From: a virus
DNA: 64,000 bases
Strand: one strand, 5' to 3'
IMG/VR virus record: IMGVR_UViG_3300045988_080644
Shown: positions 2,869 through 46,627 of the stretch, in pieces
Numbering within the stretch: position 1 is the first letter of the stretch
How the letters are laid out: the number at the start of each line of letters is the position of its first letter
Notes under the pieces: model-generated
Told to the model about the DNA's origin: nothing
The model's database searches: none
What the model saw: only the letters and a program-made list of their open reading frames with translations
Position numbers and translations under genes: made by a program

Positions 2869-3873
2869 TTAGCTATGTCTTTCCCATTCTTTTATATATT
2901 TAATAGATTCTTTAATAAATTTAATAGTTCCCTTTCTCCCATACTTCTTATAGAAATCACTAATATCCTTAGCCCCATACCTTCTAGGTATAATACAAGG
3001 AATTAAGAAATCATATTTTCTACGCAGTACATTAGTATAATGTATTCCTGTAAGATCTGAATCAAATAAAAGTACTATTTTATCAAATCTCTGCCTTAAA
3101 TCTTCTAAGATAGTATTAGAAATAAATTGAGTTTCACTTTGTGGAGCACATGCGGGTATTCCCATACCATATAAGCAAGCACAATCTTTTAAACTCTTAG
3201 TTATTACTAATAACTTACCATTTTTGGGTAATTGTCTATAACCTTGAATAGTTTTAGTAGATATATTACCTATAAATCTGTAATCAGACCTTTTCGGATA
3301 ATATATTTTCCACTGTTCTACATGTTCTTTCTTTCCAAAATAATATCCATAACTAGGACACTTTGAAGTAGATTGACTAAATATAGAACCATTTAAAAAG
3401 ACTGTTCTACAACTAAATATTCTATACTTATTTAATATAGGTTTAGTTATACCATACTGATTCCACCATTTTAGTTCCTCTTCAGAAAATTCTTGTGCCT
3501 CTATTTGAATGAAAGTTTGTTTGTCTCCTTTAAATTCAGCTTGCTTAACTACGGGTTTAGATATAGGAGATTCTCCCTTAATAAATCCAAAGTCTTTAGC
3601 TATAATTCTCAAAGCCTCATGGTAGTTACAATTAAACTTTTTCATTACAACATTTTCAAAGGCAAAGCATTCCCCAGTAGCAAAATCTTTAAAGTAAAGT
3701 CTGCCAGATTTACCTCTAAAAAATCCACAAGTTTTATGATGGTCAGAACGTAGAGGAGACACATACAAGCCTTTATCTACAGGTATTCCTAGATAATAAC
3801 TCATATATGTCTCCTCATTGTTTTCACTTAGAAGAAACTCCCTAGTAACTTTAGGTTCAAAACTAAAGTCCAT
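2869..3873 (-). CDS. DNA primase (Toprim domain, DnaG-like)
   Basis: LLVITKSLKD and LLFDSDLTG (Toprim E...DxD pattern); N-terminal His/Cys-containing region; lies in the replication module. Confidence 0.6.
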   Translation of the reverse strand: MDFSFEPKVTREFLLSENNEETYMSYYLGIPVDKGLYVSPLRSDHHKTCGFFRGKSGRLYFKDFATGECFAFENVVMKKFNCNYHEALRIIAKDFGFIKGESPISKPVVKQAEFKGDKQTFIQIEAQEFSEEELKWWNQYGITKPILNKYRIFSCRTVFLNGSIFSQSTSKCPSYGYYFGKKEHVEQWKIYYPKRSDYRFIGNISTKTIQGYRQLPKNGKLLVITKSLKDCACLYGMGIPACAPQSETQFISNTILEDLRQRFDKIVLLFDSDLTGIHYTNVLRRKYDFLIPCIIPRRYGAKDISDFYKKYGRKGTIKFIKESIKYIKEWERHS

Positions 3874-13065: not shown

Positions 13066-13596
13066 TTAGGAAGGTTGCTAAATGATGATTCTTTCTGAAT
13101 TTTCTTCATATAATGGAAAAATTTTTAAACGTTCTCTATCTGCAATTATTTTAGCTTCTTCTAAAGTATCATAGTATCCAAAAGAAATACCTTTAATTCG
13201 TACTCTGTATTTACCATTTTCAATAGTAACATTTCTTATTCCAGTTTTGCTTTTATCAACGGAGGTATTAGTAGCATTATCTTTCTTAGATAACTCCCTT
13301 AAATTACTTTTTCTGTTATCTAGAGTATTATGATTAATATGATCAATTACATTATTTTCATCCGTTTTAGACATAATCATATTATGCATCCAATATTGTT
13401 TTCTAACACCTTCTTTTTGTATCTTAGTACGAACCCCGTCTACATGCCCTTTACGATTATTTGTAATGTGCCATGTTCCTTTTATGCTAGATACTTTTTG
13501 GAAGTCTTCCTTATCTACATAACATTCTAATTGATTATCCTTATAATTTATGTAGATTATATAATAATCCTATTCTTCTTTATATTTATTTTTCAT
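13066..13596 (-). CDS. free-standing HNH homing endonuclease with AP2-type DNA-binding domain (TAG-recoded)
   Basis: IDHINHNTLDNRKSNL (HNH) followed by GIRNV..GKYRVRI (AP2-like). Checked codon by codon: the frame stays open from ATG 13596 through an in-frame TAG at 13570-13572. The annotated TAG stop at 13078 reads on 4 codons to TAA at 13066. Confidence 0.7.
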
Positions 13597-14384
13597 TATT
13601 TTAAATCATTTAGTCCAATAAGTACAGAACTCCCTGCACCCACTACTTTTGGAGATTCTCCAGACCATTTCTCGATCCACTGCTTCTTAACAAGCAATGG
13701 TGTAAGAGAAGCATTTACAATGGCATTAGCCTTAGCCTCTGCTTCGGCTACTACAATCTTCTTCTTTGCTTCTGCCTCAGCTACTTGTACTTCATTAGCT
13801 GCTTTCTGTGCTAACTGAATAGCTCTGTTCTTAGCATCTACAGCTTCTACAATAGTCTTAGGATATTGCAAACCACTAGTAAACTGGTCAAGTACAAATC
13901 CTTCCTTGTCAAGAAGTTTAGAAAGACGCTTCTCAATTGCCTGTTCTACAGCTTCACGATTTGACACAATCTGGTCTGTAGTAAATTTATTAATCTCAAT
14001 ACGACAGGCATCCTTTACATACTTAAATACAGGACCATTAATCACATCAGTTAATTCTTTGCGATATTTACGAAATACCTTTGGAGCAGCACCATCCTTA
14101 ACTTTAAGATTTACATTTGGATCAACTTTAAATTCAGAACCATCCTTAGCATTAATTGTAAATGGCTCATAGTCAATAGTCTGTACATAGGTAGGATACT
14201 CATATACTTCCTGAGTAGCCGGATTATAGAATACTCGTCCAGTCACCATAGATACATCATCTACACCTCTTTCAGAGCCATAGAGATTAACTAAGATACC
14301 TTCACAACCAGCATCGATACGTTCACAACTAGTGAAACTTAATGACAACATTAAAGCACTCGCAAATAAAAAGACTTTTCTCAT
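13596..14384 (-). CDS. SPFH/band-7 (prohibitin-like) lipoprotein
   Basis: Lipobox LSFTSC; C-terminal AEAEAKKKIVVAEAEAKANAI alanine/glutamate-rich helix typical of SPFH proteins. Confidence 0.6.
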   Translation of the reverse strand: MRKVFLFASALMLSLSFTSCERIDAGCEGILVNLYGSERGVDDVSMVTGRVFYNPATQEVYEYPTYVQTIDYEPFTINAKDGSEFKVDPNVNLKVKDGAAPKVFRKYRKELTDVINGPVFKYVKDACRIEINKFTTDQIVSNREAVEQAIEKRLSKLLDKEGFVLDQFTSGLQYPKTIVEAVDAKNRAIQLAQKAANEVQVAEAEAKKKIVVAEAEAKANAIVNASLTPLLVKKQWIEKWSGESPKVVGAGSSVLIGLNDLK

Positions 14385-18618: not shown

Positions 18619-18691
18619 TATACTATAAGTAGGTTGACTTTGTAATAGGATCTTATTCTCTACCATTACTAGTTCTCTACTTTATTATTAG

Positions 18692-18775
18692 TTGTCTAGG
18701 AGAGATTTGAACTCCCGAAGCTAAATAGCAGCTGATTTACAGTCAGCCGTGTTTGACCACTTCACATACTAGACA
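18692..18775 (-). tRNA. tRNA-Tyr(GUA), class II
   Basis: Acceptor TGTCTAG/CTAGACA, anticodon arm GCTGA-CTGTAAA-TCAGC, long variable arm, T-loop TTCAAAT. Confidence 0.85.
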
Positions 18776-18793
18776 ATAAATTCTTTTTATGAG

Positions 18794-18873
18794 TTGCAGA
18801 GGCAGGATTCGAACCACTTTGTGCGACCTCTTGGTTATGAGCCAAGCGAGATGACCAACTTCTCCACTCTGCG
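18794..18873 (-). tRNA. tRNA(CAU), initiator-like, aberrant T stem
   Basis: Anticodon arm CTTGG-CTCATAA-CCAAG; C1/A72 mismatch at the top of the acceptor stem; the T stem GCA[CAAAGT]GG/CCTGC needs a 6-nt bulge. Confidence 0.5.
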
Positions 18874-18884
18874 ATATTAAAAAG

Positions 18885-18956
18885 AGCTTCAAGTAGGATT
18901 CGAACCTACGACCTGCTCATTACAAGTGAGCTGCACTACCACTGTGCTATTGAAGC
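18885..18956 (-). tRNA. tRNA-Thr(UGU)
   Basis: Canonical cloverleaf; anticodon arm GCTCA-CTTGTAA-TGAGC; T arm GTAGG-TTCGAAT-CCTAC. Confidence 0.9.
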
Positions 18957-19101
18957 TAGAATAAAGGCGAATATGGCATTAGACGGGCAAACTATCGTGA
19001 CCATATTCTAATAATACATTGAGCTATCAGGCATACTCGTGGATTGCCACCGCTACCTCTAACAACCACCCAGTTAAACGCTAGGTGCTCTCCATTATTT
19101 G

Positions 19102-19175
19102 TAGGTGATATAGGACTTGAACCTATGACCTCTTGCTTATCAGGCAAGCTATCTAACCAACTGATATAATCACCT
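19102..19175 (-). tRNA. tRNA-Ile(GAU)
   Basis: Acceptor AGGTGAT/ATCACCT; anticodon arm CTTGC-CTGATAA-GCAAG. Confidence 0.9.
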
Positions 19176-19242
19176 AAATTGTTGGACCACTAAGGTTAGA
19201 ATTCTGTAGTGTTTCCGGTTACACCATAGTACAATTTGTTTG

Positions 19243-19319
19243 CGGAATATAAGGGACTCGAACCCTTAGTTTTACTAGAGTGACAGTCTAGTTCCCTTAC
19301 CAACAGGGCTTAATACTCC
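19243..19319 (-). tRNA. tRNA-Asp(GUC)
   Basis: Anticodon arm CTAGA-CTGTCAC-TCTAG; T arm AAGGG-TTCGAGT-CCCTT. Confidence 0.85.
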
Positions 19320-19610
19320 GGGCGCCTCTTGTGTACACATTTCTTTTCGAGAAGGTGATGAACCTTAGAAATAAGAGGCATATATTTAAATTTACTCTCC
19401 CAACATCAGTAAGTACCCCTTTGGCACTTACTAGTAGAAATCTAATTAAATAACTGTAAATGGTAATACTCGATAGTCTTTAACATCGTACCAAGCTGCT
19501 ACAGTTTTCATTCCTTTCCACCATGATTTGATAATTCTTTTCATACAGTTTAAAATTTAATTGTTAATTAAATAATCTAATTGTATAGAAGGAAGAAGAA
19601 GTAAACATCG

Positions 19611-19688
19611 TGCGAGATGTGGGAATCAAACCCACGCAAGCCTTCTGGTTGGAAGCCAGATATGCGCCTTCAGCTACACTAATCTCGC
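19611..19688 (-). tRNA. tRNA-Gly(UCC)
   Basis: Acceptor GCGAGAT/ATCTCGC; anticodon arm TCTGG-CTTCCAA-CCAGA; unusually long (8-nt) variable region. Confidence 0.75.
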
Positions 19689-19699
19689 ATATTTATTAG

Positions 19700-19774
19700 T
19701 GGACCACGGTGGGACTCGAACCCACGACATCTACCTTGCAAAAGTAGCGTTCTAGCCAGCTGAACTACGAGCCC
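19700..19774 (-). tRNA. tRNA-Ala(UGC)
   Basis: Anticodon arm CTACT-TTTGCAA-GGTAG; G3-U70 wobble and A73 present; the acceptor stem needs one bulged nucleotide. Confidence 0.75.
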
Positions 19775-20078
19775 AAATTGAATATAATTCTTTAATTAAT
19801 TATTTATTAACTTAACACATCAACAGTATATTAAATTACTGAATTTAAATAGTTAATAAATATTAAATATATTTATAGTACTATTCATATAGGTAGTCTT
19901 TGCCTTAAACGGCAAGTTCTCTACGAGAACAATATAAGAGCATTTCCTTCTCTCCAAGTTAAGAAATGTTAAAAATTCTAAACAGAGATTAAGAAATGCT
20001 CTCCACCTAAATAATCACACTACTTTGCAGATGGATGACTATTTGTAGGTGTTGTCTCACTAAAATAATTATCTTGGT

Positions 20079-20447
20079 TCATAATTTAATCTTGTTAATA
20101 AATTCATTATATTTATCAATAAATTCTTGCTCTGTAATTATATCACCCCTGTTAGCCAAAGTTAAAGATTCTTCGCAATATGAAATAGAACCAAATTTGT
20201 TAGATTCTCTTAAGTGCAATTCTAGAATAGTACAGTTACATTCATTAACCGAAATGATTTTATACCAATACATGTCTTCACCATAATCGCAATATCTATA
20301 TCTATTTTTGGATAATTCAGCTTTCAATATTGTATCTTGTATCTCACTTTGTTTAACTAATAGGTCAGCTATCTGTTTACTTATGTCTTTTAAAGTTTCA
20401 GAATCAGTCATTAAATAATTTTTCAATAGATTTCTTATAATCTGCAT
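20079..20447 (-). CDS. hypothetical protein (coiled-coil N-terminus plus small C-terminal domain family)
   Basis: ORF track; architecture shared with 35563, 38761, 39797 and 43495. Confidence 0.55.
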   Translation of the reverse strand: MQIIRNLLKNYLMTDSETLKDISKQIADLLVKQSEIQDTILKAELSKNRYRYCDYGEDMYWYKIISVNECNCTILELHLRESNKFGSISYCEESLTLANRGDIITEQEFIDKYNEFINKIKL

Positions 20448-20619
20448 TCTTATTCATAAAATATATCGTAAGAACAGTATTAATTATAGGACAGTATATA
20501 ATTACTAGAGTTAATAAATTTGCTTTAACACGTTTTTCTACCCTACGATCTTCCATATAGAATATACTAAAGAGATAAAAAACAAGTAAAACAAATGCTC
20601 CCATAGCTATTACAGGCAT
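20404..20619 (-). CDS. small membrane protein
   Basis: Two hydrophobic helices. Confidence 0.5.
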   Translation of the reverse strand: MPVIAMGAFVLLVFYLFSIFYMEDRRVEKRVKANLLTLVIIYCPIINTVLTIYFMNKNADYKKSIEKLFND

Positions 20620-20620
20620 A

Positions 20621-21718
20621 TTACAATTCCTTAATATTGGAATCTTCAGACTTTCCTAGATATATCTCATTTATAGTACAATTACTTGTGCGAAATTGTT
20701 CTATAAAACGTATTTTACCAATAATCCTTGGAGACTTATCTTGATAATCACATATAGTAGGAATATATGCAGTCTTTAAACAATCCCAATGAGTTATGAC
20801 AATGTTAAATTTACAATGATAAGTTTCACGGTAATTATCTAAACAATGTCTTTCAATAGCTCTTTCGAATAAAGTATAGTCAAAAGGACCCGTCTTAAAC
20901 TCTCCTTGTGGTCCATCATTAGTATTTGATGGTTCTTCTAGAGTAAAATATGTATCCAAGTCCATAGAATAAGGATTGTACCCATTTCCATGTCTAGTTA
21001 AATATGGACGCATAACTAAGTATACCTCTGCATTTTCTAGACACTTTTCTTGGATTCCATTTAATCCTACTTTGCTAGGAGTACAATGAGGCATAAATCC
21101 TCTTTCCATATCTAGAAGGAGACCTTGAGAACCCTCCCAAATAACAGTATCAACCTCATCAGGATAATAAGTTCCAATTATAAAGGTCTCTGGGTGTTCT
21201 TTAATAAAGGTACAAGCCTCTTTAAAAAGATCATCTAATTCAGTGTCTCGTTCTAGATTGTGATAATCCCTTATAGTTTGTAGAATTACATCTGTATATT
21301 CATTTATATAAGGGCACATACGAGCACTATAAGTTACATTATCTTTGTTTCTTTTAAAACAAGCATGTATTCCTTTACCACAAGTTCCATTATACTTTAC
21401 TCGTCCATCCATAGAATCAGCTAATACATCATAAGGTGTAATAACTCTACAGTTAGGATTTATATATAACTTAGGAACTTCAATACCTTCATTAACTAAG
21501 ACCTTATACTCATTATAGATACATATCGGGTCAATGAATACTTCTTTATATAGACAAGTTGGTACTCCTAGTAAAACACCACTTCCCCAAGAAGAACATA
21601 CGTGTGATTTACCTTTATAAACCACACGATGCCCAGCTTGTGGACCTCCACTAAATCTAATGACAACAGGTTTATGGCTATTCATACATAACCATTGTAC
21701 TACATTACCTTTACCCTC
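20621..21718 (-). CDS. adenylosuccinate-synthetase-family (PurA/PurZ-like) enzyme, exon 2
   Basis: EGKGNVVQWL...RFSGGPQAGH, GTCGKGIHACF, WEGSQGLLLDMERG and LTRHGNGY align with the PurA motifs GDEGKGK, GGHNAGH, GTTGRGIGPAY, FEGAQGTLLD and STRVGAGP. The frame is open 33 nt upstream of the annotated ATG, back to a TAA. Confidence 0.75.
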   Translation of the reverse strand, partial: EGKGNVVQWLCMNSHKPVVIRFSGGPQAGHRVVYKGKSHVCSSWGSGVLLGVPTCLYKEVFIDPICIYNEYKVLVNEGIEVPKLYINPNCRVITPYDVLADSMDGRVKYNGTCGKGIHACFKRNKDNVTYSARMCPYINEYTDVILQTIRDYHNLERDTELDDLFKEACTFIKEHPETFIIGTYYPDEVDTVIWEGSQGLLLDMERGFMPHCTPSKVGLNGIQEKCLENAEVYLVMRPYLTRHGNGYNPYSMDLDTYFTLEEPSNTNDGPQGEFKTGPFDYTLFERAIERHCLDNYRETYHCKFNIVITHWDCLKTAYIPTICDYQDKSPRIIGKIRFIEQFRTSNCTINEIYLGKSEDSNIKEL

Positions 21719-22975
21719 CCAATTGTTAGCTTATAGGCTTTTTATCCTATAATTCTGGAGATTACTCTCATACTCTTTCGAGATACGTCTGTCAATTCAG
21801 ACCAGTGCGGCGTACATTTTCACCATATTACTAAAAGTAACTTAGGGCAGGACACTCTTGGGTCTATTATATTTATTCAAGACCTACGCTCTACAATACC
21901 AATTAGCCTTACGCAATCTAATTAGTTATCACGGTATTATCTAGGAATTATAGACTTCACCGTTTTTGCCCTGTAATAATAGTTACAGTTTCCCATAACT
22001 ACGACGAAATTCTAAATATCTATTATATTTTCTATCTAAGTACATTGTTGAATTTTTATATAAATAATCTATGCATTGATATGCTACATTGTTAGTTAAA
22101 AGAATCTAATAAGTTTTACCATTATTATGTTTAGCATATAAAGTTTTTTCACCACAAGGTAGATATCTCATCATCCCTTGCAAGAAATCTTTAGTTCCAA
22201 TTACATTAAACTCAGCATATTTATGTTCTTTATCTGAATAAGTGACACATCCATCACCATCAAAGTATCCTCTAAGAAAATGACGAATTAATTCTTCTTT
22301 ACTATATCGATCAGAACTTATAAATATGTCTTCGTTAGGAAATTGTAGTATTAAAGACTTTTGAGGAACACATCCCTTTGAAATTAGATTTTGATAAATA
22401 TTTCTATTATCAAACTTCATTCTACAAGTTATATAATTATCTTTTTCTTGAGTTCTAATTTCACTAGAATAATGTAATAAATCACAGAATTTTTGCATAT
22501 GGCTAATATCTGCATATTGCAAATTCATTGCAAATGTTGGTCTATCTTTAGCTACATACCCATCAGCAAATATGAAACCTAACCAATAAGCCTTTTCTTC
22601 AGTATCTATTACATCAAAGAAATGTTCATTAAGATCCCACATTCCTCTTTTATCTACTACAGATGCACCCATTAATGATAAATTCTTTTTAATGGTTTTT
22701 TCTGTAACATTATATTTAATTGCTAACTCTTCTATGGTTTTACCAGAATTATATAAGGATAAAGCTTCATCTTTATTATAAGTCTATCTAATTTCTTTAA
22801 GAGTTACTCCTTTATATACTAAATATTTTTTTACACTATCTTTACTAACTTTATTATCTTTACATATCTGGGAAATTGATAATCCCTAATCTACATACAT
22901 AGACACTATATTTAAAGTGTCAAACTTTTCAATAGTACTTTTTCTTATCATATAATATTATTTAAAAATTAATTC
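21719..22975 (-). mobile_element. putative group I intron carrying a LAGLIDADG homing endonuclease ORF
   Basis: Separates the PurA-like P-loop halves (..IVLGSLFGD | EGKGN..). The 5' exon ends in U and the intron ends in G. The GC-richer 3' part contains GNRA-capped and long-range helices. P1/IGS pairing was not identified. Confidence 0.55.
21983..22951 (-). CDS. LAGLIDADG homing endonuclease with N-terminal HTH (TAG-recoded)
   Basis: Two LAGLIDADG motifs (WLGFIFADGYV, FLRGYFDGDGCV). Checked codon by codon: 322 codons open from ATG 22951 to TAA 21983, with 3 in-frame TAG (22886, 22784, 22106) and no TAA or TGA. Confidence 0.8.
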
Positions 22976-23029
22976 ATCACCAAATAGAGATCCAAGTACT
23001 ATCTGATTACGAATTTGTTTGCTGTCCAT
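22976..23029 (-). CDS. PurA/PurZ-like enzyme, exon 1 (MDSKQIRNQIVLGSLFGD)
   Basis: The ATG at 23029 overlaps the end of the upstream gene. IVLGSLFGD supplies the missing first strand and start of the P-loop (PurA: VVVLGTQWGD-EGKGK). Confidence 0.55.
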
Positions 23030-23819
23030 AGCTGTTAGAAACAATACGAGCAATAGATTCACCTACGTGCTCTTTATCTGAAATAATAAGATTATCCCCT
23101 ACATAAGGCTTCCAACTGTTAGAAACCCTCTCTACACCATAGTAACCACCATGCTCAACATGAATATGATAAATATCCCACTTCTCAGCACATTCTCTAT
23201 ATATGAAGGAAGTGGCTAAATCTTCACCACACTCATCACCTATATAATGAGTTACTGCTTCTTTAGGAAGAGTTTTATGAATTGGCTCATCACTAATTGT
23301 AATTAAACAGCCTTTAATACCTCTTTTCTCTAGGGCGTCGGTCTTAATGTGATTAGTAGCAAAATACCAACACATATGAGGATCCTCTCCGTTATTACCG
23401 CCTCCTCTACCTTCAAGATCAACCTTACGGAGCCATTTCTCCATAAGTTCATCACTCGATTCAAACTGTCCTACTTGTAAAGGGGCTTCTTCATAGCAGC
23501 CTTCTACATCACCAAATGCCATAAAACAGATTTGAGGATTATCAATACCCGCCTTCATAATACTAGCTACACAATCTGGCAGGGTATTATCAATAAGATA
23601 TTTAGGAACTTTACCCATAGAACCTGTCTCATCAAGGGCAATAATAATAGGAAATGATTCTGGATGCTCCTCAGAATCACAAGACTCTCTGAAATTAATA
23701 TTAAGAGGATTCATTTCAGGGTCTAAATTCTTCTTACTAAATGTCTTTTCGATAGACTGAGATCTGTAACTATGACTTCTAGCTACAGCATCACTATATG
23801 AATAACTACCACATCCCAT
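23007..23819 (-). CDS. von Willebrand factor A (vWA) domain protein, TerY-like
   Basis: MIDAS-type IIIALDETGSMG near the start of the domain; about 270 aa, as in TerY. Confidence 0.65.
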   Translation of the reverse strand: MGCGSYSYSDAVARSHSYRSQSIEKTFSKKNLDPEMNPLNINFRESCDSEEHPESFPIIIALDETGSMGKVPKYLIDNTLPDCVASIMKAGIDNPQICFMAFGDVEGCYEEAPLQVGQFESSDELMEKWLRKVDLEGRGGGNNGEDPHMCWYFATNHIKTDALEKRGIKGCLITISDEPIHKTLPKEAVTHYIGDECGEDLATSFIYRECAEKWDIYHIHVEHGGYYGVERVSNSWKPYVGDNLIISDKEHVGESIARIVSNSYGQQTNS

Positions 23820-24880
23820 TATGCTTCCTCCTTTGCTTGTGATTTAATATTACTAGCTAATGCACTAACTAAAGCATTTACATTATCTATAAGTGTATCT
23901 ACCTTAGCATTAATCTTATCTAATTCTGATGGTTCTGGAGTCTCAGCAGCGGGCTTGTTTGCTGCTCCGAACATATTACCAAACATGTTGCCACCTCCCA
24001 TAAGCTGACTCATAAGCGTTATAGTCATAAAATCAGAACTACTCTTATCTGCAAGAGCCATAAGCATTATAGGATTAAATCCTTTACCTGCATTATTAAA
24101 CAATCCACCACCATTAAAAGCAGACATCATAAGCAGATTCTTAACATCGAATCTGTTGCCGCTCATAAATGCAAGTGCCAGTGGATTAAATCCATTAGAA
24201 GAATCAAAGTTAAATGGATTGACAATAACTCGGAATGTTGCAGAACCCATCAACTCATCTTCAATAGCAATCTTATTATTGATATTACCATTGAAGTTCA
24301 TAATCTTGATAGAACCATCTTCTGCTTTAGCCTTAACTACACCATAAGATCTGCCTGACTTTACAATATCTCCAATTACAATCTGGTCAGAATTCTTACT
24401 AATATTGTAAATACAAGGCATAGGGTAAGTCATCTTGTATTTCTTGAGTTTGCCAGAAGGAGACATACCTACATAAGCACCGTCACTATTCTTAAAGCAG
24501 AGCACACCATCAGTAATACTAATCTTAGCACCCTCTTCAGCCTGCGGCATAAAATCATCGTACATGTCTTTAGTTAAATCACCAAAGACATCACTCATAT
24601 CCATTTTTCCAAATTGTTCCATACTTGAAATATTTTTACCTATAGTATTAATTTGTTTACCATTAATCTCAGAAATTGTTACTGTCTCATAACTTTCTTG
24701 TTCTCTAGAACTTGCATAAGTCCAGACAACTTGAAATTTACTGTCATAACCTACAAGTTGTACTAAATCACCTCTTTTAAGTCCTGGACACTCATTAGCT
24801 ACTATATATGGTACAGTAGTTTCTGAATTCATTCTCTCAGGACTTAATTTAGTATTTGTAAATATACCTCTAATTATCAT
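23819..24880 (-). CDS. hypothetical protein with G/N/M-rich low-complexity region
   Basis: ORF track; 1-nt overlap with the vWA gene. Confidence 0.6.
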   Translation of the reverse strand: MIIRGIFTNTKLSPERMNSETTVPYIVANECPGLKRGDLVQLVGYDSKFQVVWTYASSREQESYETVTISEINGKQINTIGKNISSMEQFGKMDMSDVFGDLTKDMYDDFMPQAEEGAKISITDGVLCFKNSDGAYVGMSPSGKLKKYKMTYPMPCIYNISKNSDQIVIGDIVKSGRSYGVVKAKAEDGSIKIMNFNGNINNKIAIEDELMGSATFRVIVNPFNFDSSNGFNPLALAFMSGNRFDVKNLLMMSAFNGGGLFNNAGKGFNPIMLMALADKSSSDFMTITLMSQLMGGGNMFGNMFGAANKPAAETPEPSELDKINAKVDTLIDNVNALVSALASNIKSQAKEEA

Positions 24881-24882
24881 AA

Positions 24883-25110
24883 TTATAAACTATTAAGTAT
24901 ATTTTTATATCTATCTAAATATTTAGAACCTAATGCAGACATTATCTTATAAAATCCTGACCTAAATCCATCATCAGAGCTAACTAATTGTTTTATGCTC
25001 TTTATATAATAATCAGGTATATCAGATCTACATTCATGTTGCATTAAGTTTCTAACTAGTGCCATTTTATTTAATATTTCACCAGCTGCCTTAGCTTTAT
25101 CTTCAGTCAT
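24883..25110 (-). CDS. hypothetical protein
   Basis: ORF track. Confidence 0.55.
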   Translation of the reverse strand: MTEDKAKAAGEILNKMALVRNLMQHECRSDIPDYYIKSIKQLVSSDDGFRSGFYKIMSALGSKYLDRYKNILNSL

Positions 25111-31626: not shown

Positions 31627-32010
31627 TTATTTAAGAATCTTAACCTTTACATGTCTTATACTAATTCTTTTAGAGTTTTTGGGGTGTATCAATATATCGA
31701 CTCTATGTTTAAATCGTTTATTAGTAACATCCCTAACTTCATACACTCCAAATCCCTCTATAAACACCTTTTTAGGCTTATTCTTTGGAAATAAATAAAG
31801 TAAATCGCGGGAAACTGCACACCACTTAATGTGACCCCTTTTCAAATGACGTAAATTAATTTTAGAACCATCAGCTGTAACTAATGGTTTACTGTCACAT
31901 TGACTCTTTACAGGTTGATAACAAGTAAGAGTTACATGAGTAGTTGTTTGGCAGAAAGCCCCACTCATGAAGCTTAATAATAATAAAAATATTAATATCT
32001 GTTTCCTCAT
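31627..32010 (-). CDS. secreted 3D/DPBB-domain (MltA/RlpA-like) protein
   Basis: Signal peptide; VTADGSKI...CAVSRDLL...IEGFGVYEVRDV...RVDILI resembles the 3D-domain pattern. Confidence 0.5.
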   Translation of the reverse strand: MRKQILIFLLLLSFMSGAFCQTTTHVTLTCYQPVKSQCDSKPLVTADGSKINLRHLKRGHIKWCAVSRDLLYLFPKNKPKKVFIEGFGVYEVRDVTNKRFKHRVDILIHPKNSKRISIRHVKVKILK

Positions 32011-33159
32011 TTAATATATCTGATTAAACTTACCTGAAGCATTCGTAGAATACCCAGATTTAATTATATAAATAATAAAATGGTTATAACAAGTTACAAT
32101 ATATCCCTTCTTAGCATTTATATAGAATATAGGACGGTCATCAAATTCATCACCTATTTTAAGATACTTTATTTCTTTATTTACACTTACAGAATCTGTA
32201 CGAATATAAGCACCTGCCATAGTGATTTGAGCATCCCGTTCCTCTTCAGTTAATTTAGAAGGGGACTTTCTTTCTATTTTACGAGTTACTTCACGACTTC
32301 TAATTATTTTCTCAAATAACTGCTCATTAATATTCTGAACATTACTAAGAGAACCAGACTCTAACTCTATAGACTCTACTAAATAAGTAAAATCAGAGAA
32401 CTCAAGATTAAAATTCTTACGGATTAAATCTATTTTGTCAACACCATGAATATTAACTTCCTGAGCGAGAGCCTTAACTAAATCAACAGTAACTATTTGC
32501 ATCTGTCTAATTAAATCCAGTACTGGTTCTATTGCATCTTTGTCAATTAAAATATCATTAAGTAACTCAAGTGTGGTTTCTTCAGGTAAATTGCCAAAAG
32601 AACGTACATATCTAATACGTGATGGACGACCTAATAAATTATTATTAATTTCTAACTCATTAGTGGTAAGTAGGAATATTTTACGATATTGTGAGTTGTG
32701 CACACCATCCATAAAAGAAAGCACTAATGAGGATTCCCTAAATTCTTTTTCGTATTCATCAAAGAAGAAAATACAATCAAAGTTAATTTGAGTAGCTAAG
32801 AATTTAAGCATGTCATCTACTTCCTTACAGGATTTAACAATAATAACTGGAAGTCCAATACGATTACAAAGCTCTTCTGCAGTTACTGTCTTACCTGTTC
32901 CCTTGATTCCATTAAATAATACGCCTAAATTACCAGTAGTATTATTGTAAGTCTTTATAAAATGATCAATAAACTTGTTATTAATACCATATAATTTGTA
33001 ATTAAATACAAAAGAATCTCCAAGTCTATTTAAATAATAACCTGTCATTGATTCTTTAACTTCATAAATTCCTTTAGGTAATCCTTCAGGATGTGCTTTT
33101 GTTGTGGCACTACCCTTTATAAAAGTATTACCGTCTTGAATCCAAATGTTTTGTTCCAT
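32011..33159 (-). CDS. AAA+ ATPase
   Basis: Walker A GIKGTGKT and Walker B IFFFDEYE. Confidence 0.7.
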   Translation of the reverse strand: MEQNIWIQDGNTFIKGSATTKAHPEGLPKGIYEVKESMTGYYLNRLGDSFVFNYKLYGINNKFIDHFIKTYNNTTGNLGVLFNGIKGTGKTVTAEELCNRIGLPVIIVKSCKEVDDMLKFLATQINFDCIFFFDEYEKEFRESSLVLSFMDGVHNSQYRKIFLLTTNELEINNNLLGRPSRIRYVRSFGNLPEETTLELLNDILIDKDAIEPVLDLIRQMQIVTVDLVKALAQEVNIHGVDKIDLIRKNFNLEFSDFTYLVESIELESGSLSNVQNINEQLFEKIIRSREVTRKIERKSPSKLTEEERDAQITMAGAYIRTDSVSVNKEIKYLKIGDEFDDRPIFYINAKKGYIVTCYNHFIIYIIKSGYSTNASGKFNQIY

Positions 33160-33180
33160 AATTAACTAAATTATTTAAAA

Positions 33181-33414
33181 TTATTTAATTGTTTCACCTA
33201 CTCTGTAATCGTCCCCATCACACACACGAATAGTTTTAATCTCATATCGATTAATTTTCTTATTATACATTCGTATCTTGAAAGTATAATGCTCTATATG
33301 TATTGTTTTTGATATTATTACCCCTCCCTTATAATTCAATATAGAATCTTTATATTGAACTGGAGGACCACAAGATACTAATAAAGATAAAATTACTAAT
33401 ACTATTACTTTCAT
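33181..33414 (-). CDS. small lipoprotein
   Basis: MKVIVLVILSLLVSC lipobox; start set at ATG 33414. Confidence 0.55.
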   Translation of the reverse strand: MKVIVLVILSLLVSCGPPVQYKDSILNYKGGVIISKTIHIEHYTFKIRMYNKKINRYEIKTIRVCDGDDYRVGETIK

Positions 33415-33425
33415 AATAATTAAAC

Positions 33426-33460
33426 ACAAAAATCCCTGAACTAAATAAATAGTCCAGGGA
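33426..33460 (-). terminator. rho-independent terminator
   Basis: Minus-strand hairpin TCCCTGGAC...GTTCAGGGA followed by TTTTTGTG. Confidence 0.6.
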
Positions 33461-33498
33461 TTAAAATAACGTTAAATAATAAAAACAGTTCTATGAAC

Positions 33499-33831
33499 TG
33501 GTGGAGCTAGACGGTACTGCCCCGTCGTCTTGCCTATTTGCATCAAAACGTTCTTACAGCATAGGTTTTAAAGACTTTCCTTGTCTTAGGGTTGACAAGA
33601 TTAACATTGTCAACTTCCACCACTCTGTTCCTAAAGTATACAGAGAACTTATAAGAAATGAAAGAATAGTGCACCTTTCTGTTCCTAAGCAAGTGCTGCT
33701 CGGCTTCTCAGGCTGCAATAGCGTAAGAAGCGGAAGTGTTATTTACTTCGCCAATTAATTTTTTACTTGTCTATCCAAGTTGTCTTGCTGTGTTTCTTAT
33801 CTCCTAGACAATCAAATACTAGTTTAGCCCC
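33499..33831 (-). ncRNA. ssrA: tmRNA (ssrA), one-piece
   Basis: 5' GGGGCTA pairs with 3' TAGCTCC (including G3-U70), followed by an encoded ACCA. The 3' end AGCTCCACCA is identical to the E. coli tmRNA terminus. Internal tag frame GGC GAA GTA AAT AAC ACT TCC GCT TCT TAC GCT ATT GCA GCC TGA gives GEVNNTSASYAIAA*. A hairpin plus T-run follows directly. Confidence 0.8.
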
Positions 33832-33962
33832 ATACTTAAAAGAGTCCTAAATTAGAACTCTTTAATATCTTCTGATTCTTCGGCTATATGGAAAACCCAT
33901 ATCGTACCAATCATCTGGATCTATTCTATCTTCATTACCCATAATTTAAAACTTAATTAATG

Positions 33963-34292
33963 TTAAAAACTAAATTGAATATCTCTATTGACATCTAATA
34001 ATCCTCCTTGCCAATTAGATTGAATATCCATACTGAACCATGTACCATATTTAGTTCTTGCAAACCAAATAAGATGATTGTCGTACTTAGGAATATAACA
34101 ACCTATAAAATAGTCAGTATCTCCATTCCATATCCAACTACAGTTAAGAGCACTATTTATTAAATGTATCTTTAGATGTATATCAGCCCTATTAAAAGGA
34201 ATTACTTTCTTTACATAAGCTTTATATAATCTACTTGGCGAACATTTACCATCGTCAAAGAAATTATAAATCTGTCTCTTTTTCGGAATCAT
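33963..34292 (-). CDS. hypothetical protein
   Basis: ORF track. Confidence 0.6.
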   Translation of the reverse strand: MIPKKRQIYNFFDDGKCSPSRLYKAYVKKVIPFNRADIHLKIHLINSALNCSWIWNGDTDYFIGCYIPKYDNHLIWFARTKYGTWFSMDIQSNWQGGLLDVNRDIQFSF

Positions 34293-34986
34293 TAATCATA
34301 TACTGTCTTAATATATTTTCATTAACTGTACCATCATTTTCTCTAGTGAGATTGTCTAATAGTTCCAAATCAAATTTTTCTTTTCGAAATTTAAAACATT
34401 GTCTTAATATAGCTTCATTAACTATATTCTCATTTTCTCTTGCAAGTTTATCTAATAACTCTAGATTAAATTCTTCCTTTTGAAACTTAAATTGAATCCA
34501 ATTAGGTTCAAATTCTCTGTAATCTAGATGAGACAGAGGTTCATCTGTATTTAATACATATTTAACTAGTCTAGTTAAACGTTCTCCAGCTAGTTTAGAT
34601 ACCACAAAACCAGATAAATCATAACCTACACCTCTACTTCTCCAATATTCACCAACTTCAGGTTTAGAATCCGGAGCAACATAGAACATTTTATAATAAT
34701 CTGAAGACTCTAAAGTTACATAAGTACCTAACTGACTACTACAACATATACCTAAACCAATATTAGAATACAAATTATTATCACGCTCTAATGTAAGAAA
34801 TACTGGAACTTTATAAGGGTCTAAATTATTAATCTCACAATGATGCAATGCAGTATGTGCATACTCAAGTAATTTAGACACTGATATAGTACTTAGTTTA
34901 GTATCTTCTTCACTTTTGTTCTCTTTAATGGCAGCATCAGAACATCTAGTGTGCCAATTTTTCCATTTATCTCCTTCTAAATACAT
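34264..34986 (-). CDS. hypothetical protein with two C-terminal ~30-aa tandem repeats
   Basis: Repeat EFNLELLDKLARENENIVNEAILRQ / KFDLELLDNLTRENDGTVNENILRQ. Confidence 0.6.
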   Translation of the reverse strand: MYLEGDKWKNWHTRCSDAAIKENKSEEDTKLSTISVSKLLEYAHTALHHCEINNLDPYKVPVFLTLERDNNLYSNIGLGICCSSQLGTYVTLESSDYYKMFYVAPDSKPEVGEYWRSRGVGYDLSGFVVSKLAGERLTRLVKYVLNTDEPLSHLDYREFEPNWIQFKFQKEEFNLELLDKLARENENIVNEAILRQCFKFRKEKFDLELLDNLTRENDGTVNENILRQYMINDSEKETDL

Positions 34987-35095
34987 AGCAATTAACTTAT
35001 ATAATACAATAAAAAAGTCATAGAAACAATTAATATTCCTATCATAATAAAGAATAGAATTACAAATTGAATATCTGCATTCATATTATAAATAC

Positions 35096-35305
35096 TTAAT
35101 CACCTCCAGGCAGGCTATCTAAATACTGAGGAATAGTTACTTCTGTATTATTCTTCTCTTTTTCAAGTTGCTGAATAGCATTTGACTGTCTATCTACAAT
35201 TATTTGCAATTCCAGAATTTTTGCTTTCTGATAATAGTAGTTAGGAACTGACCAAGCTAAAACAATTATAAAACAAATTGTTGGTAATATCCAAAGTTTA
35301 TTCAT
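35096..35305 (-). CDS. small membrane-anchored protein
   Basis: N-terminal TM helix. Confidence 0.5.
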   Translation of the reverse strand: MNKLWILPTICFIIVLAWSVPNYYYQKAKILELQIIVDRQSNAIQQLEKEKNNTEVTIPQYLDSLPGGD

Positions 35306-35326
35306 ATTTTTTTATTTTTTTTATTT

Positions 35327-35566
35327 TTAACCCCAAATTACATAAACTCCATGTTCACCCTTATAACGAAGACTAATCTCAAATCCTAACTCTTTAAGGT
35401 AATTATAATATTTGTCAACATTAGTTGGCGGAAGTATAGAACCAATCCAAGCTGCATAATTACCTTTACTAGCTTCTTTAATTATAGCAAAGTTTATTTG
35501 ATCTAATATATGCGGGTCTAATACAGCAGACCTAGATATAGTCTTTGCTTCTGTTGCTTTAATCAT
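35327..35566 (-). CDS. hypothetical protein
   Basis: ORF track. Confidence 0.55.
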   Translation of the reverse strand: MIKATEAKTISRSAVLDPHILDQINFAIIKEASKGNYAAWIGSILPPTNVDKYYNYLKELGFEISLRYKGEHGVYVIWG

Positions 35567-35967
35567 AACTTTTTAATTTTTAAACTAGCATCTTTAAACC
35601 ATATATTAAGTCTATCTATGGCACTTTCCCATTCAGATTGAGAGCAGATTTTATAATATTTTAAAAAGTTAGTATTACCTGCATTAAATTGGTATATACC
35701 TATACATTTACCACCAGGAGTGATTTTAGTTACAGTATATCCAGTACCATCATTGATAACTACTTTTAGATAAGATGTGTTATCTTTATAGTAAGGATGT
35801 TCTCTAAGAGCGCAATTATTAACTTGTATCTTTTTAGCTCTTATGTTACTTACTATTTCTCCTATAGTATTCTCTAAATTGTCTCTTTGACTTAGAAACT
35901 TTATTTTGAGTTTTTCCAAGTCCTCAATAGACATTTCCGAATAGTTATTTATATTTTCTGTTTCCAT
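35563..35967 (-). CDS. hypothetical protein (coiled-coil N-terminus family)
   Basis: ORF track; 4-nt overlap. Confidence 0.55.
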   Translation of the reverse strand: METENINNYSEMSIEDLEKLKIKFLSQRDNLENTIGEIVSNIRAKKIQVNNCALREHPYYKDNTSYLKVVINDGTGYTVTKITPGGKCIGIYQFNAGNTNFLKYYKICSQSEWESAIDRLNIWFKDASLKIKKL

Positions 35968-35969
35968 AA

Positions 35970-36266
35970 CTATAATTTTTTTAATATTTTTACATTTTTA
36001 ATTAATGGTTCGCCATCAGTACCAGTTTCATCTAACAAATCACCAGTTACTAGATATTTATTGCCAGTAAAGTATTTTACATTATATATAAAATCATTAA
36101 ATGCCATCTCATTTGTTGGAAATGGAAGAACGGGAGAGTATGTTCCATTTATATTTTTATGAGCTTCATAAACTGAAACTCCAGGTTCTTCTCCAACTTT
36201 TTCGTTGCATTTCCAAATACATGATTTCTCATTTTTAGGTATTTCACCAAATCTATAGAATATCAT
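35970..36266 (-). CDS. hypothetical protein
   Basis: ORF track. Confidence 0.55.
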   Translation of the reverse strand: MIFYRFGEIPKNEKSCIWKCNEKVGEEPGVSVYEAHKNINGTYSPVLPFPTNEMAFNDFIYNVKYFTGNKYLVTGDLLDETGTDGEPLIKNVKILKKL

Positions 36267-36404
36267 TTAGTTTTTCCTTAACATTCTTATACTCTTCTAT
36301 GAAATACATAACTAGAGAAACAATACTTACTATAGCAGCTGCCACACAAATAACTGCTATCAAAATCATTATAGTTAATAAAATAACATCCATAGTTATT
36401 TTGT

Positions 36405-36596
36405 TTAATTCTCTTTAAGTTCTACTGGCTCATCATTCCAAGATAGTTCCCTTCCGATGAGTTTCTTAATGCTACCTTGTGGTATTTCTATGCATTTGCA
36501 AGAACCATAATCGTCTCTCCAGCTATATACAGCTTTGTGAGGCTCTGTTTCAAATATAAGTTCCGTACCGAAACTATTAACACATACCCATGCCAT
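36405..36596 (-). CDS. hypothetical protein
   Basis: ORF track. Confidence 0.5.
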   Translation of the reverse strand: MAWVCVNSFGTELIFETEPHKAVYSWRDDYGSCKCIEIPQGSIKKLIGRELSWNDEPVELKEN

Positions 36597-36598
36597 AA

Positions 36599-36946
36599 CT
36601 ATTCCTCCAATTTTTTAATTAATAAATTACTTTTCTTATCAAATAGTTTATAACCACTACGGAGATACCAATCCAGAACAAATCTATCAGATTCCTCTTC
36701 AACAAAGTGTAATCCGATGGTTTTTACTCCATTCAACTTAGCCTGTTGTTCTGCAAGTTGTAATAGGCTTTTTGCGACACCCTTTCTTCTATAATTATTA
36801 TCTACAAAGAGTGCATATATTAGAGCATCGGCTTTGCCAAAAATATCACTAACATATAATGGAATAAATATTTGAACCGAACTGAGATTTTCTTCATCGG
36901 TTATTAAAATTCTGATTTCATCCTTCCATGTCTGCTTTTGTATCAT
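36599..36946 (-). CDS. GNAT-family N-acetyltransferase
   Basis: Motif A LFVDNNYRRKGVAKSLLQLAEQQAK (R-x-x-G-x-A). Confidence 0.7.
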   Translation of the reverse strand: MIQKQTWKDEIRILITDEENLSSVQIFIPLYVSDIFGKADALIYALFVDNNYRRKGVAKSLLQLAEQQAKLNGVKTIGLHFVEEESDRFVLDWYLRSGYKLFDKKSNLLIKKLEE

Positions 36947-37286
36947 CCTCTAACTTTTTAAATTGATTTTTATAAAAGTCTGGAACTCTATTGACTCCCC
37001 ACCAAGAACCTCCTTCATCACCACAAGACACTATCCATACTGGTTCTTTAGTATCTTTATCTCGGCAATAAACCATACCACGAACTTTATCATACATAAA
37101 GATTGATTCTAGCTCAAAGTCTAAGTCTTCTAGAGTAGTATAGACTTTGCAAGAAAATACGTCTCTTTCTTCATTATAGAACCTAGCAGAAGATTCTTCA
37201 TCATTCATTAGGTCTATTTTAAGTATTTCTAAGTTATAGTATTCAACAACTTCTAGAAGTGACTTTTTAACATTTATTTTACACAT
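36918..37286 (-). CDS. hypothetical protein
   Basis: ORF track. Confidence 0.55.
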   Translation of the reverse strand: MCKINVKKSLLEVVEYYNLEILKIDLMNDEESSARFYNEERDVFSCKVYTTLEDLDFELESIFMYDKVRGMVYCRDKDTKEPVWIVSCGDEGGSWWGVNRVPDFYKNQFKKLEDDTKADMEG

Positions 37287-44218: not shown

Positions 44219-44250
44219 TCCAAAATAAAATAATATGATAAAAGAAAGAG

Positions 44251-44323
44251 TGGGCTCGCCCGGGATTGAACCGAGAATAAGAGATTATGAGTCTCCCGTT
44301 TTAACCGATTGAACTACAAGCCC
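44251..44323 (-). tRNA. tRNA(CAU), elongator Met or lysidine-type Ile2
   Basis: Acceptor GGGCTTG/CGAGCCC; anticodon arm GGAGA-CTCATAA-TCTCT; T-loop TTCAATC. Confidence 0.85.
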
Positions 44324-44533
44324 GAAAATGTGCCTGAGGGTCGTTAATCCTCTCCTTTCTTAGTCAAGAGAACGTTGCAACTTGCCACTAAGACACACTG
44401 TTTTTGAGTTTTTGTAAGTCCTCCGACTTATTAAAGTTTTCGCATAATTTTGATAAGAATTCTACTTTCACAAGCAAAACTCTTTGAGCCTTATTCAATA
44501 ATTTAAAAATTATATAAAATTTAGGATAGAAAG

Positions 44534-44605
44534 GAAATGCGGACAGATTCGAACTGCCGACCTTCTACTCTACGGTAGATGCTCTAACCACTAAGCTACA
44601 CATTT
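44534..44605 (-). tRNA. tRNA-like gene with a 6-nt anticodon loop (identity undetermined)
   Basis: Canonical acceptor (AAATGTG/CGCATTT), D arm, 5-nt variable region and T arm (GGCAG-TTCGAAT-CTGTC), but the anticodon stem TCTAC/GTAGA encloses only CGTAGA. Confidence 0.5.
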
Positions 44606-45369: not shown

Positions 45370-46431
45370 TTAATATCCTTTATTATAATTTAAATTTAAA
45401 TCATATTTATTTGCATAATGTTTTCCCTAAACTCTTTGAGGAGCATTTCCATAATGTACTTTTAATGGATGTCCTTCTTCTCCAGATTCATATATATAAT
45501 TACCCTATCTAACAGGCAAAGAATATATAGAATCTCCTACTGCGTTATTGTTTATCATATAGTTAAGTGCATCTGTAGGTAAATTAACACAACCATAAGA
45601 TTTATTTCTAATTCCATTTTTAAAATCAGTCTATCTACTCTTAGGCATAATATGAAATAAAACGGAAGTTTTCTACTTAGTGTTTGTATTATCTCTACTT
45701 CCCTCATTCCATCTAAATGCTGGATGTCCTTCATAACTAGAAGAAGATAAAGTAAAAATACCAGCAGGTGTTACCTAGGCTTGTTTACTTCCATTATAAA
45801 AGTTTTTATCTTTCTAGTATATTGGATCAGTTTTATAATTATTCCAAAAATTATATCCATCCTAGTCATTAGATAAACCTGTCATAACATCAAATTGTGC
45901 TAAGGCTTTGTTTCCTTGCATGTGTTTTAATTGATGATTATTTCTATCTAGTATCCAATAAGGTTCAGTAACACCACTATGTATTTTATGGTCTATAATA
46001 GCCTATTCATTCTTGTTAGTAGATAATGGATAAGGTTTTGGCTCAAACTTATTAATCCAATTAGTTAAACTAGTAAACATATCGGTATCTTTGTTAGTCT
46101 ACTAATTCTTTTTTAACTAATAATCATGCCATGCCTATTTACTTTTTACACCCCAATCTCCATCTACTGCAATATTATAACCAGCTTTAACTAGTTCCTA
46201 CTGCTATTGACGAACTTTGTTAGGGTCATACATAGCACCATATTTAGCTCTTAATCTAGCATCATAATTATTTTGCTGTTTTCTTCTAGTCTAGAGCTAT
46301 TTAGAACCCTATGTAGCTCTCTGATTCATCTATTTTACCTTTTTTAATCCAGAATTAGTAAAATCCTTCATTTTCTATCTTTGTACTCCAATAATGTTTC
46401 CAAGATAACTATTTTCAAAATTTCCTGTCAT
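45370..46431 (-). CDS. peptidoglycan-binding plus YkuD (L,D-transpeptidase-fold) protein, TAG-recoded
   Basis: Checked codon by codon: 353 sense codons from ATG 46431 to TAA 45370, with 19 in-frame TAG and no TAA or TGA. PG_binding_1-like LVKAGYNIAVDGDWGVKSK(TAG)AWHDY(TAG); YkuD catalytic FHIMP...SYGCVNLP. Confidence 0.85.
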
Positions 46432-46627
46432 AAATATTAATATTTAAGTTATTATTTTTAATTGATTAATCACTTATTTATTATATGTCTATGGCATAGA
46501 AATTACCAATAAATTAAAACTCATACTACTTTCGCAAGCAGTATGAGTTAATGTGTAAGTCATTTTATTGACTTATCAACTCAACTACAAGAAATTCATC
46601 AATTTTCACAAATTAATAATTAATATG

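Follow-up and report, generated by a model that had tools for sequence, protein, structure and literature searches.

Comparative evidence for a mobile, IA-like group I intron with a TAG-recoded LAGLIDADG endonuclease gene in the phosphate-binding loop codons of a purA-like phage gene

The group I introns of the lytic bacteriophage T4 (td, nrdB and nrdD; subgroup IA2) are mobile elements which reside in genes of nucleotide metabolism, interrupt highly conserved active-site codons and bring an early in-frame stop into the host reading frame. Their endonucleases, I-TevI, I-TevII and I-TevIII, are of the GIY-YIG or HNH type and are encoded in other peripheral loops than the one considered here. 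An element that resembles them by description was found in a 64,000-nucleotide (nt) stretch of viral DNA (IMG/VR virus record IMGVR_UViG_3300045988_080644; hereafter the window, its positions being 1-based), in which the GDEGKG codons of a purA-like gene on the minus strand are interrupted by 1257 nt (22975..21719). The evidence presented below makes it very probable that this insertion is a mobile group I intron, apparently of the IA type, carrying a TAG-recoded LAGLIDADG endonuclease gene. The latter sets it apart from the T4 introns, as does the position of the open reading frame (ORF), which is predicted to lie in the loop of P1.

A second parallel comes from the TGA-recoded ‘Agate’ phages, where a recoded group I intron endonuclease was described within an early gene and its translation was argued to await the code switch (Borges et al., bioRxiv 10.1101/2021.08.26.457843). 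As proposed for the window, a self-splicing intron is situated in a standard-code gene of a recoded gut phage, with the reassigned stop codon occurring inside its endonuclease ORF; the Agate phages, however, belong to another clade and decode TGA as Trp, whereas in the window the codon is TAG and is accompanied by tRNA(CUA). The RNA itself is most readily compared with the introns of phages of Gram-positive bacteria and of crAss-like phages (ROSA-type and cr6_1). Staphylococcus phage ROSA, which is among the blastn matches of the window intron, has been named among the relatives of the Bacillus cereus-group group I introns (PMC2504315). Shared with these introns are a homologous core (70-77% nucleotide identity over ~140 nt), an identical 14-nt P7.1 loop UGAAUAAAUAUAAU, a CAAGAGU segment, the helix order, a guide sequence adjacent to P2 and the ...AACAnnnnG ending. 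On the other hand, the P9 domain of the window intron is larger than that of most relatives, and the introns of ROSA and of Staphylococcus epidermidis phages carry HNH endonucleases, whereas the window intron carries a LAGLIDADG endonuclease with TAG sense codons. None of the ingredients is without precedent: group I introns are known from nucleotide-metabolism genes of phages, and intron endonucleases of the LAGLIDADG family as well as recoded ones have been described; the host gene and the site, the P-loop of a purA-like gene, are new.

The first exon of the purA-like gene (22976..23029, minus strand) consists of 18 codons, opens with the ATG at 23029, encodes MDSKQIRNQIVLGSLFGD and ends at 22976, its final U lying just before the 5' splice site. 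It shares 23 nt with the upstream ORF (23007..23819, minus strand). Past exon 1 the reading frame continues as ELIFK and is then terminated by TAA. The second exon (20621..21718, minus strand) runs from EGKGNVV... to the stop codon of the gene and contains no in-frame TAG. The downstream ORF had been annotated from the ATG at 21685; its frame extends upstream in phase to 21718, adding EGKGNVVQWLC (EGKGNVVQWLCMNSHKP), and is closed further upstream by TAA. The insertion between the exons (21719..22975, minus strand) begins with G (22975), is directly preceded by T and ends in G (omega-G, 21719), as do the introns of three relatives discussed below (L142, cr6_1 and L136). Because the insertion and exon 2 both begin with GA, the boundary may be shifted by up to 2 nt; T/...G (a slash denotes the splice junction here and below) is the sole placement compatible with group I rules. 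The G+C content of the 255-nt tail following the endonuclease ORF is 37%, compared with 26% in the ORF itself and 31% in the window. The original prediction for this locus had listed the upstream extension to EGKGNVVQWLC followed by TAA, an upstream ATG that supplies the missing N-terminus and overlaps the preceding ORF, an insertion of 1257 nt with a 322-codon ORF and three in-frame TAG codons, a tail richer in GC, and a junction with U before and G last; each of these was recovered at the given coordinates, exactly to the base. It had also labelled the upstream ORF 23007..23819 as ‘vWA’ (von Willebrand factor A), a label left unconfirmed by Pfam, with no match at E<=0.01, and by PHROGs, whose family 2971 is of unknown function.

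The GDEGKG loop is regained solely by joining the exons at GAT/GAG, as had been predicted. The resulting protein of 383 amino acids (aa) was compared with the Pfam family Adenylsucc_synt (PF00709), a search which had likewise been suggested, and matched it with an E value of 6.7e-35 (121 bits against a gathering cut-off of 27) from profile position 1 to position 314 of 416, crossing GD/EGKG. PurA proteins in the PDB were matched with E values down to 3.8e-21, and those of E. coli and Yersinia could be aligned from residue 3-4 through GDEGKG; the insertion thus separates the Asp codon of the phosphate-binding loop from the Glu codon that follows it. The C-terminal 70 residues (~315-383) have no counterpart in the PurA profile, and the specificity for GTP or ATP is therefore unreadable from the sequence. 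Meanwhile, the best PHROGs family, phrog_1211 (5.4e-44), bears a PurZ-type name. PurZ of the 2-aminoadenine pathway of Z-genome phages has Ser at the position of the P-loop Asp of PurA (S23 in S-2L PurZ), one of several residues unique to PurZ (PMC8342488). Like PurZ, the window protein is a phage-encoded, shortened PurA homolog, but it has Asp at this position (FGDEGKG), and its match to the PurA-like 7VF6 (6e-4) is far weaker than those to bacterial PurA structures (1e-21). Judged by the P-loop Asp, the protein looks PurA-like.

The scanning of IMG/VR with the joined protein revealed 11 contigs with an uninterrupted gene of 1149 nt, the products of which are 92-100% identical to the 383-aa query, with alleles encoding the identical protein among them. 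In all 11 contigs the last 24 nt of exon 1 directly adjoin the first 24 nt of exon 2. Two other contigs, L007 and L142, have an insertion at the identical point, 1256 nt long in one case. In a close relative of the window (L001) precisely these 1257 nt of the window are missing, and the flanks are 99.8% (upstream) and 99.5% (downstream) identical to those of the window. Conversely, the contig L007 (IMG/VR 3300045988_079570) carries an insertion at the same point which is 99.6% identical to the window copy, even though the flanks are merely 91-96% identical. L142, with its insertion at the same site, is a more distant genome from baboon gut. Absence from an almost identical genome, combined with near-identity of the element in a diverged one, is the pattern expected of a homing element. 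Two more genomes, L011 and L014 (IMG/VR 3300045988_115917 and 3300045988_089481), had been considered as possible second insertion sites, which was ruled out, both being deletions of ~3.4-3.6 kb (window 25055..21428 and 24682..21250; flanks 95-99.8% identical). Lost with these deletions are the two genes upstream, the site of the intron and the beginning of the purA-like gene, which is therefore probably dispensable.

The 255 nt that follow the endonuclease ORF (21719..21973, minus strand) contain the putative ribozyme core. According to blastn, sequences similar to the segment 21942..21804 are present in 110 GenBank phage records, of which 91 belong to Staphylococcus phages. Relatives lie between the halves of split genes, such as terL in Staphylococcus phage vB-SscS-F1 and in a Clostridium phage, or a Walker-A ATPase in the crAss-like phage cr6_1, the latter beside an annotated ‘intron-encoded endonuclease’. 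A 28-nt core pattern is present in at least 119 IMG/VR viral contigs, and in the alignment of 104 distinct copies similarity stops precisely at the proposed 3' splice site (21719). An nhmmer search of the window for further copies of this RNA family returned only the one in the purA-like gene.

RNAalifold analysis of 34 diverse copies yielded P3, P4, P5, P6 with a GNRA loop, a hairpin between P7 and P3', P8, P9 and a last hairpin, with compensatory change in 39 of the 49 predicted pairs. P7, which forms a pseudoknot with P3, was added manually: GCGUA pairs with UACGC, and one extra pair forms across a bulged base. In the full structure including P7, 98.4% of the cells form standard pairs and 42 of 55 pairs have changed on both sides, which none of 500 shuffles reached; structures slid by 1-3 columns were only 32-41% paired. 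P3 and P7 are each 100% paired in the 34 relatives and both include covarying pairs. The G-C pair of P7 at alignment columns 97 and 177 is invariant (34/34), column 96 is unpaired (A or C), and the adjoining pair of columns 95 and 178 covaries (GC in 21 copies, AU in 9, CG in 4). This arrangement is that of a guanosine-binding site, and by analogy it would bind guanosine. The group I assignment made in the original prediction is thereby supported by comparative analysis and by covariation that includes the P3/P7 pseudoknot.

Mapped onto the minus strand of the window, P3 is formed by 21973-21967 and 21854-21848, P4 by 21963-21958 and 21936-21931, P5 by 21955-21939, P6 with its GNRA loop by 21930-21895, and P7 by 21891-21885 and 21814-21809. 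The P7.1 hairpin occupies 21884-21861, P8 21847-21823, J8/7 21822-21815, the P9 domain 21805-21755 and the last hairpin 21751-21732, followed by a tail terminating in G (21731-21719). The minimum free energy (MFE) fold of the window sequence on its own recovers P2-P6, P7.1, P8 and P9, and compared with the window, L142 has compensatory changes in P6, P7, P7.1 and the last hairpin. Introns of subgroup IA are marked by additional pairing (P7.1/P7.2) that separates the 5' strand of P7 from the 3' strand of P3. In the family studied here a single hairpin was seen exactly there, all five of its pairs covarying fully and its 14-nt loop being invariant; this P7.1 element may be described as IA-like.

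P1 and the internal guide sequence, which could not be discerned when the original prediction was made, were located directly 5' of P2, after the endonuclease ORF. The 5' strand of the predicted P1 (22973..22980, minus strand) comprises GUGAU of the exon and GAA of the intron and forms eight contiguous pairs with 22001..22008, U22976 facing G22005 as a U.G wobble. The 3' strand belongs to the guide sequence UUUCGUCGU (22001..22009, minus strand), the UUUC part of which can pair with GAGG of exon 2 (P10). The P2 hairpin AGUUAUG-GGAAAC-UGUAACU follows immediately (21981..22000, minus strand) and is present in the MFE and centroid folds. A guide sequence within the first 24 nt of the intron is impossible, as the sole G there is the first base, and it must be sought elsewhere. 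The candidate at intron position 971 was picked among all G positions of the intron because it could form P10 and occupies the place usual in the family; the longer matches at positions 692, 730 and 1135 were rejected, being located within the ORF or within P8. In the relatives the guide sequence is found directly 5' of P2 and in most of them has the core (U)UGCC, which pairs with ...GGU/ followed by AA; P2 hairpins of differing sequence hold the same place and are followed by a short A/U-rich joiner and P3. Two relatives have splice junctions fixed independently by their Walker A motifs. In cr6_1, GGU/AAUA pairs with UAUUGCC and splicing would restore GTG/KT, while in the compact intron of L136, GGU/AAAU pairs with AUUUGCC and GVG/KTS would be restored; both follow the rule of the P2-adjacent guide and both have the U.G wobble at the splice site. 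The terL intron of a Staphylococcus phage (L020) was not used as a test case for P1, because its exon junction could not be fixed by eye. With the guide sequence after the ORF and beside P2, the endonuclease ORF is predicted to sit in the P1 loop.

The homing-endonuclease gene (21983..22951, minus strand) starts with the ATG at 22951 and comprises 322 codons followed by TAA (21985..21983), so that at the 3' end it overlaps both the guide sequence and P2; it has exactly three in-frame stops, all of them TAG. The deduced protein contains two LAGLIDADG-type motifs, YWLGFIFADG (D130) and FLRGYFDGDG (D231/D233), and residues G125, A129, D130, G131, G228, D231 and G232 are invariant across 50 homologs. 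Pfam matches were obtained to LAGLIDADG_3 (1.3e-8) and to HTH_7, with two N-terminal helix-turn-helix (HTH) modules, and residues 25-314 match phrog_4645 (2.5e-56). There are more than 5000 homologs in the databases, one of which is 100% identical and has already been called with TAG as Q. A sequence search of the PDB with this protein gave no match and a fold search was required. The AlphaFold2 (AF2) model (predicted local distance difference test score, pLDDT, of 91.7) has I-AniI, I-Tsp061I, the bI3 maturase, I-SceI and I-DmoI as its top Foldseek matches (E 1e-8 to 6e-5, probability 1.00), in agreement with the pseudo-dimeric alpha-beta-beta-alpha-beta-beta-alpha fold of this class. These enzymes, too, have two LAGLIDADG helices with conserved acidic residues, but the identity to them is just 11-17% and the window protein adds ~100 N-terminal residues with the two HTH modules. 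The model, together with the profile matches and the invariant motif residues, supports the double-motif LAGLIDADG assignment anticipated from the sequence and suggests a monomeric endonuclease.

Inteins, too, frequently contain LAGLIDADG endonucleases; intein endonuclease domains are among the top Foldseek matches, and some of the database homologs are named ‘intein-encoded’. However, TAA follows five codons past exon 1 and eight more stops lie between the endonuclease ORF and exon 2, which renders an in-frame intein fusion impossible. As to a group II intron, the corresponding models found no match in 20000-24000, the tail, the whole window or the relatives, and the structured part measures merely ~290 nt. 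Against an assembly chimera, the window, L007 and L142 were assembled independently and all three contain the insertion. In our estimation, each of these three alternatives is extremely improbable.

The three in-frame TAGs of the endonuclease gene are codon 22 (22886..22888), which is TAG also in L007 and L142, codon 56 (22784..22786), which is CAA (Gln) in L142, and codon 282 (22106..22108), which is kept as TAG in L142 (all minus strand). Conserved family sequence continues beyond each of them, and the strongly conserved C-terminal motif YLYKNSTxYLDRKY is found downstream of TAG 282. A tRNA with the anticodon CUA, i.e. an amber suppressor (60021..60094, plus strand), was detected by ARAGORN and by the Rfam tRNA model and is presumed to decode the three TAGs. 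Most ORFs of the window have no in-frame TAG, recoding being concentrated in a subset of genes. Among these are ORFs, all on the minus strand, for a YkuD L,D-transpeptidase-domain protein (45370-46443; 19 in-frame TAGs, nearly the whole Pfam profile being matched), a protein with no Pfam match (61419-62165; 17), a GNAT acetyltransferase (36287-37204; 8) and an HNH endonuclease-type protein (13066-13605; Pfam HNH_3, 1.6e-7; 2). Judging from these codons, their conservation and the tRNA, TAG is a sense codon in this phage, in line with the recoding originally proposed. It is probably read as Gln, as suggested only by the TAG and CAA found at codon 56 and by the literature, in which TAG-to-Gln human-gut phages with tRNA(CUA) have been described (PMC10607447). 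With TAG at codons 22, 56 and 282, the full-length endonuclease would require the amber-suppressor tRNA, and a delayed timing of its synthesis seems a reasonable inference.

In regard to the same genes, nhmmer detected no copy of the intron RNA family near the HNH ORF 13066-13605, which may therefore be free-standing. Three clusters with 15 tRNA genes in total are present on the minus strand (18691-19774, 44250-44605 and 48467-49430). One ARAGORN call in them (44533-44605) has an abnormal two-base anticodon, and one Rfam tRNA match (48700-48771) is absent from the ARAGORN calls.

Several observations weigh against the intron reading as a whole or in part. The curated Rfam group I model (RF00028), which had been proposed as a check, gave no match at E<=10 on 21690-22010 and 20000-24000, none on the whole window at the gathering threshold, and none in three related loci or in the ORF-less relatives L020 and L136. 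The predicted P1 is long-range and only 8 bp in length, with three G.U pairs, and L142 has lost one of its outer pairs. In L007 a 1-nt deletion (3572-3575, ~window 22149) shifts the endonuclease frame near codon 269, which may point to early decay of some endonuclease copies or to a sequencing error. As regards decoding, the suppressor tRNA is unlike the tRNA-Gln of the window, its comparison with the other window tRNAs is uninformative, and the residues of homologs are variable at all three TAG positions. RF00028 appears not to cover the present intron subfamily, and given its silence the group I assignment rests on hand-mapped topology and covariation, not on a curated model.

The lack of a match to the curated model, as well as the seeming dispensability of a gene that is partly deleted in L011 and L014, would also suit a free-standing endonuclease cassette that does not splice and that has destroyed the purA-like gene, leaving a pseudogene. 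Such a cassette would hardly be expected to have a 255-nt RNA structure maintained by compensatory changes both family-wide and between same-site orthologs, nor ends that follow U/...G and a junction-complementary guide at the family position. Furthermore, exon 2 has diverged from that of L142 and yet is open, with an intact PurA-like frame, and relatives of the element split essential genes such as terL. We consider a non-splicing cassette highly improbable.

A different possibility is that the intron is real and its endonuclease gene is a decaying pseudogene, the TAGs being nonsense mutations and the element being immobile and persisting by splicing. Under the standard code the ORF does stop at codon 22, the copy in L007 has its deletion, and the homing cycle is well known to include a stage at which intron endonuclease genes decay. 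Against this, all three stops are TAG, with no TAA or TGA, in a genome with tRNA(CUA) and sense TAGs elsewhere. The window and L142 ORFs (86% identical) differ by 131 substitutions, distributed 31/17/83 over the three codon positions, and by no indels; TAG is kept twice and replaced by CAA once, and the family motifs past each TAG are conserved. This substitution pattern is that of a gene under purifying selection. In addition, the near-identity of the intron amid diverged flanks in L007 argues for recent transfer. Decay of the endonuclease gene is thus improbable, if somewhat less so than a cassette, and a mobile group I intron with a recoded endonuclease gene is the preferred interpretation.

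On this interpretation, the gene would be transcribed as a single RNA and, as we infer from the group I mechanism, spliced. The last bases of exon 1 together with the first three of the intron (GUGAU/GAA) would pair with the guide UUCGUCGU ~965 nt downstream to form P1 with its U.G wobble at the splice site, and the core P3-P9 would fold around the P3/P7 pseudoknot. An external guanosine held at the invariant G-C pair of P7 would attack the 5' splice site, after which the terminal G (21719) would replace the guanosine and the exons would be joined, possibly with the help of P10 (UUUC with GAGG). The spliced mRNA would encode the intact 383-aa enzyme, while ribosomes on unspliced RNA would halt at the TAA five codons into the intron. 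The endonuclease presumably cuts intron-less alleles around TTTGGTGAT/GAGGGTAAAGG, and upon co-infection, repair templated by the intron-carrying genome would copy the intron in (homing). Under the standard code translation of the endonuclease would end after 21 residues, the host gene itself being devoid of TAG.

The distribution of the wider intron family is illustrated by the crAss-like phage cr6_1 (L019; NC_055894.1, 2007-3966), in which gp44 (‘non-ATPase regulatory subunit’) and gp42 (‘ATPase’) are the two exons of one gene, split inside Walker A (GTKGTG/KTVMAK) by an intron of the same family with a homologous LAGLIDADG endonuclease. In 13 of 62 diverse members (loci L019-L137) the 3' exon begins with K-[ST] after the terminal G, i.e. 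at Walker A G/K[ST]; other members sit at unrelated sites. The Walker A-sited members interrupt unrelated NTPases and carry HNH or LAGLIDADG endonucleases or none. One may speculate that the ribozyme itself, in addition to the endonuclease, biases the landing sites of the family, although we regard this idea as rather doubtful. If it were true, the family would reach new P-loop sites by reverse splicing or by drift of the guide sequence, the copy in the purA-like gene would be a derivative with its guide changed to UUCGUCGU to match GAU/GAG, and the endonuclease lineage would be confined to TAG-suppressing phages.

With respect to the phage as a whole, megablast and tblastn yielded only partial matches to human-gut phages, with short segments in common with Prevotella Lak phages. 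The region 31628-36290 is 92% identical to the human-gut phage MT835492, ~300 nt at 35972-36267 are 82% identical to Prevotella Lak megaphages, and a part of the endonuclease gene (window ~22632-22251) is 84% identical to a Lak phage sequence. By such similarities, these gut phages appear to exchange segments. Elsewhere in the window, two RAGATH-1 hammerhead ribozymes lie ~900 nt apart on the minus strand (53971-54055 and 54949-55054), with scores of 81.3 and 69.7 bits, over the Rfam gathering score.

If the intron is not recognised, the locus reads as a truncated 354-aa purA-like ORF that lacks the catalytic P-loop, plus an ‘endonuclease’ broken by stops; the correct annotation would be an intact 383-aa enzyme and a 322-aa endonuclease with TAG as sense. 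A large family of phage group I introns, spread over the viral contigs and GenBank records counted above, goes undetected by the Rfam group I model. With Rfam blind to it, split genes in such phages are systematically mis-annotated, as exemplified by the cr6_1 ATPase, which is recorded as two proteins. Natural genomes with and without the intron, 99.5-99.8% identical to one another, exist as experimental material. Finally, the intron in the purA-like gene would provide a second, independent case, of the TAG type, in which a selfish endonuclease gene uses the late code of a phage while lying inside a standard-code gene, an idea put forward earlier for TGA-recoded phages.

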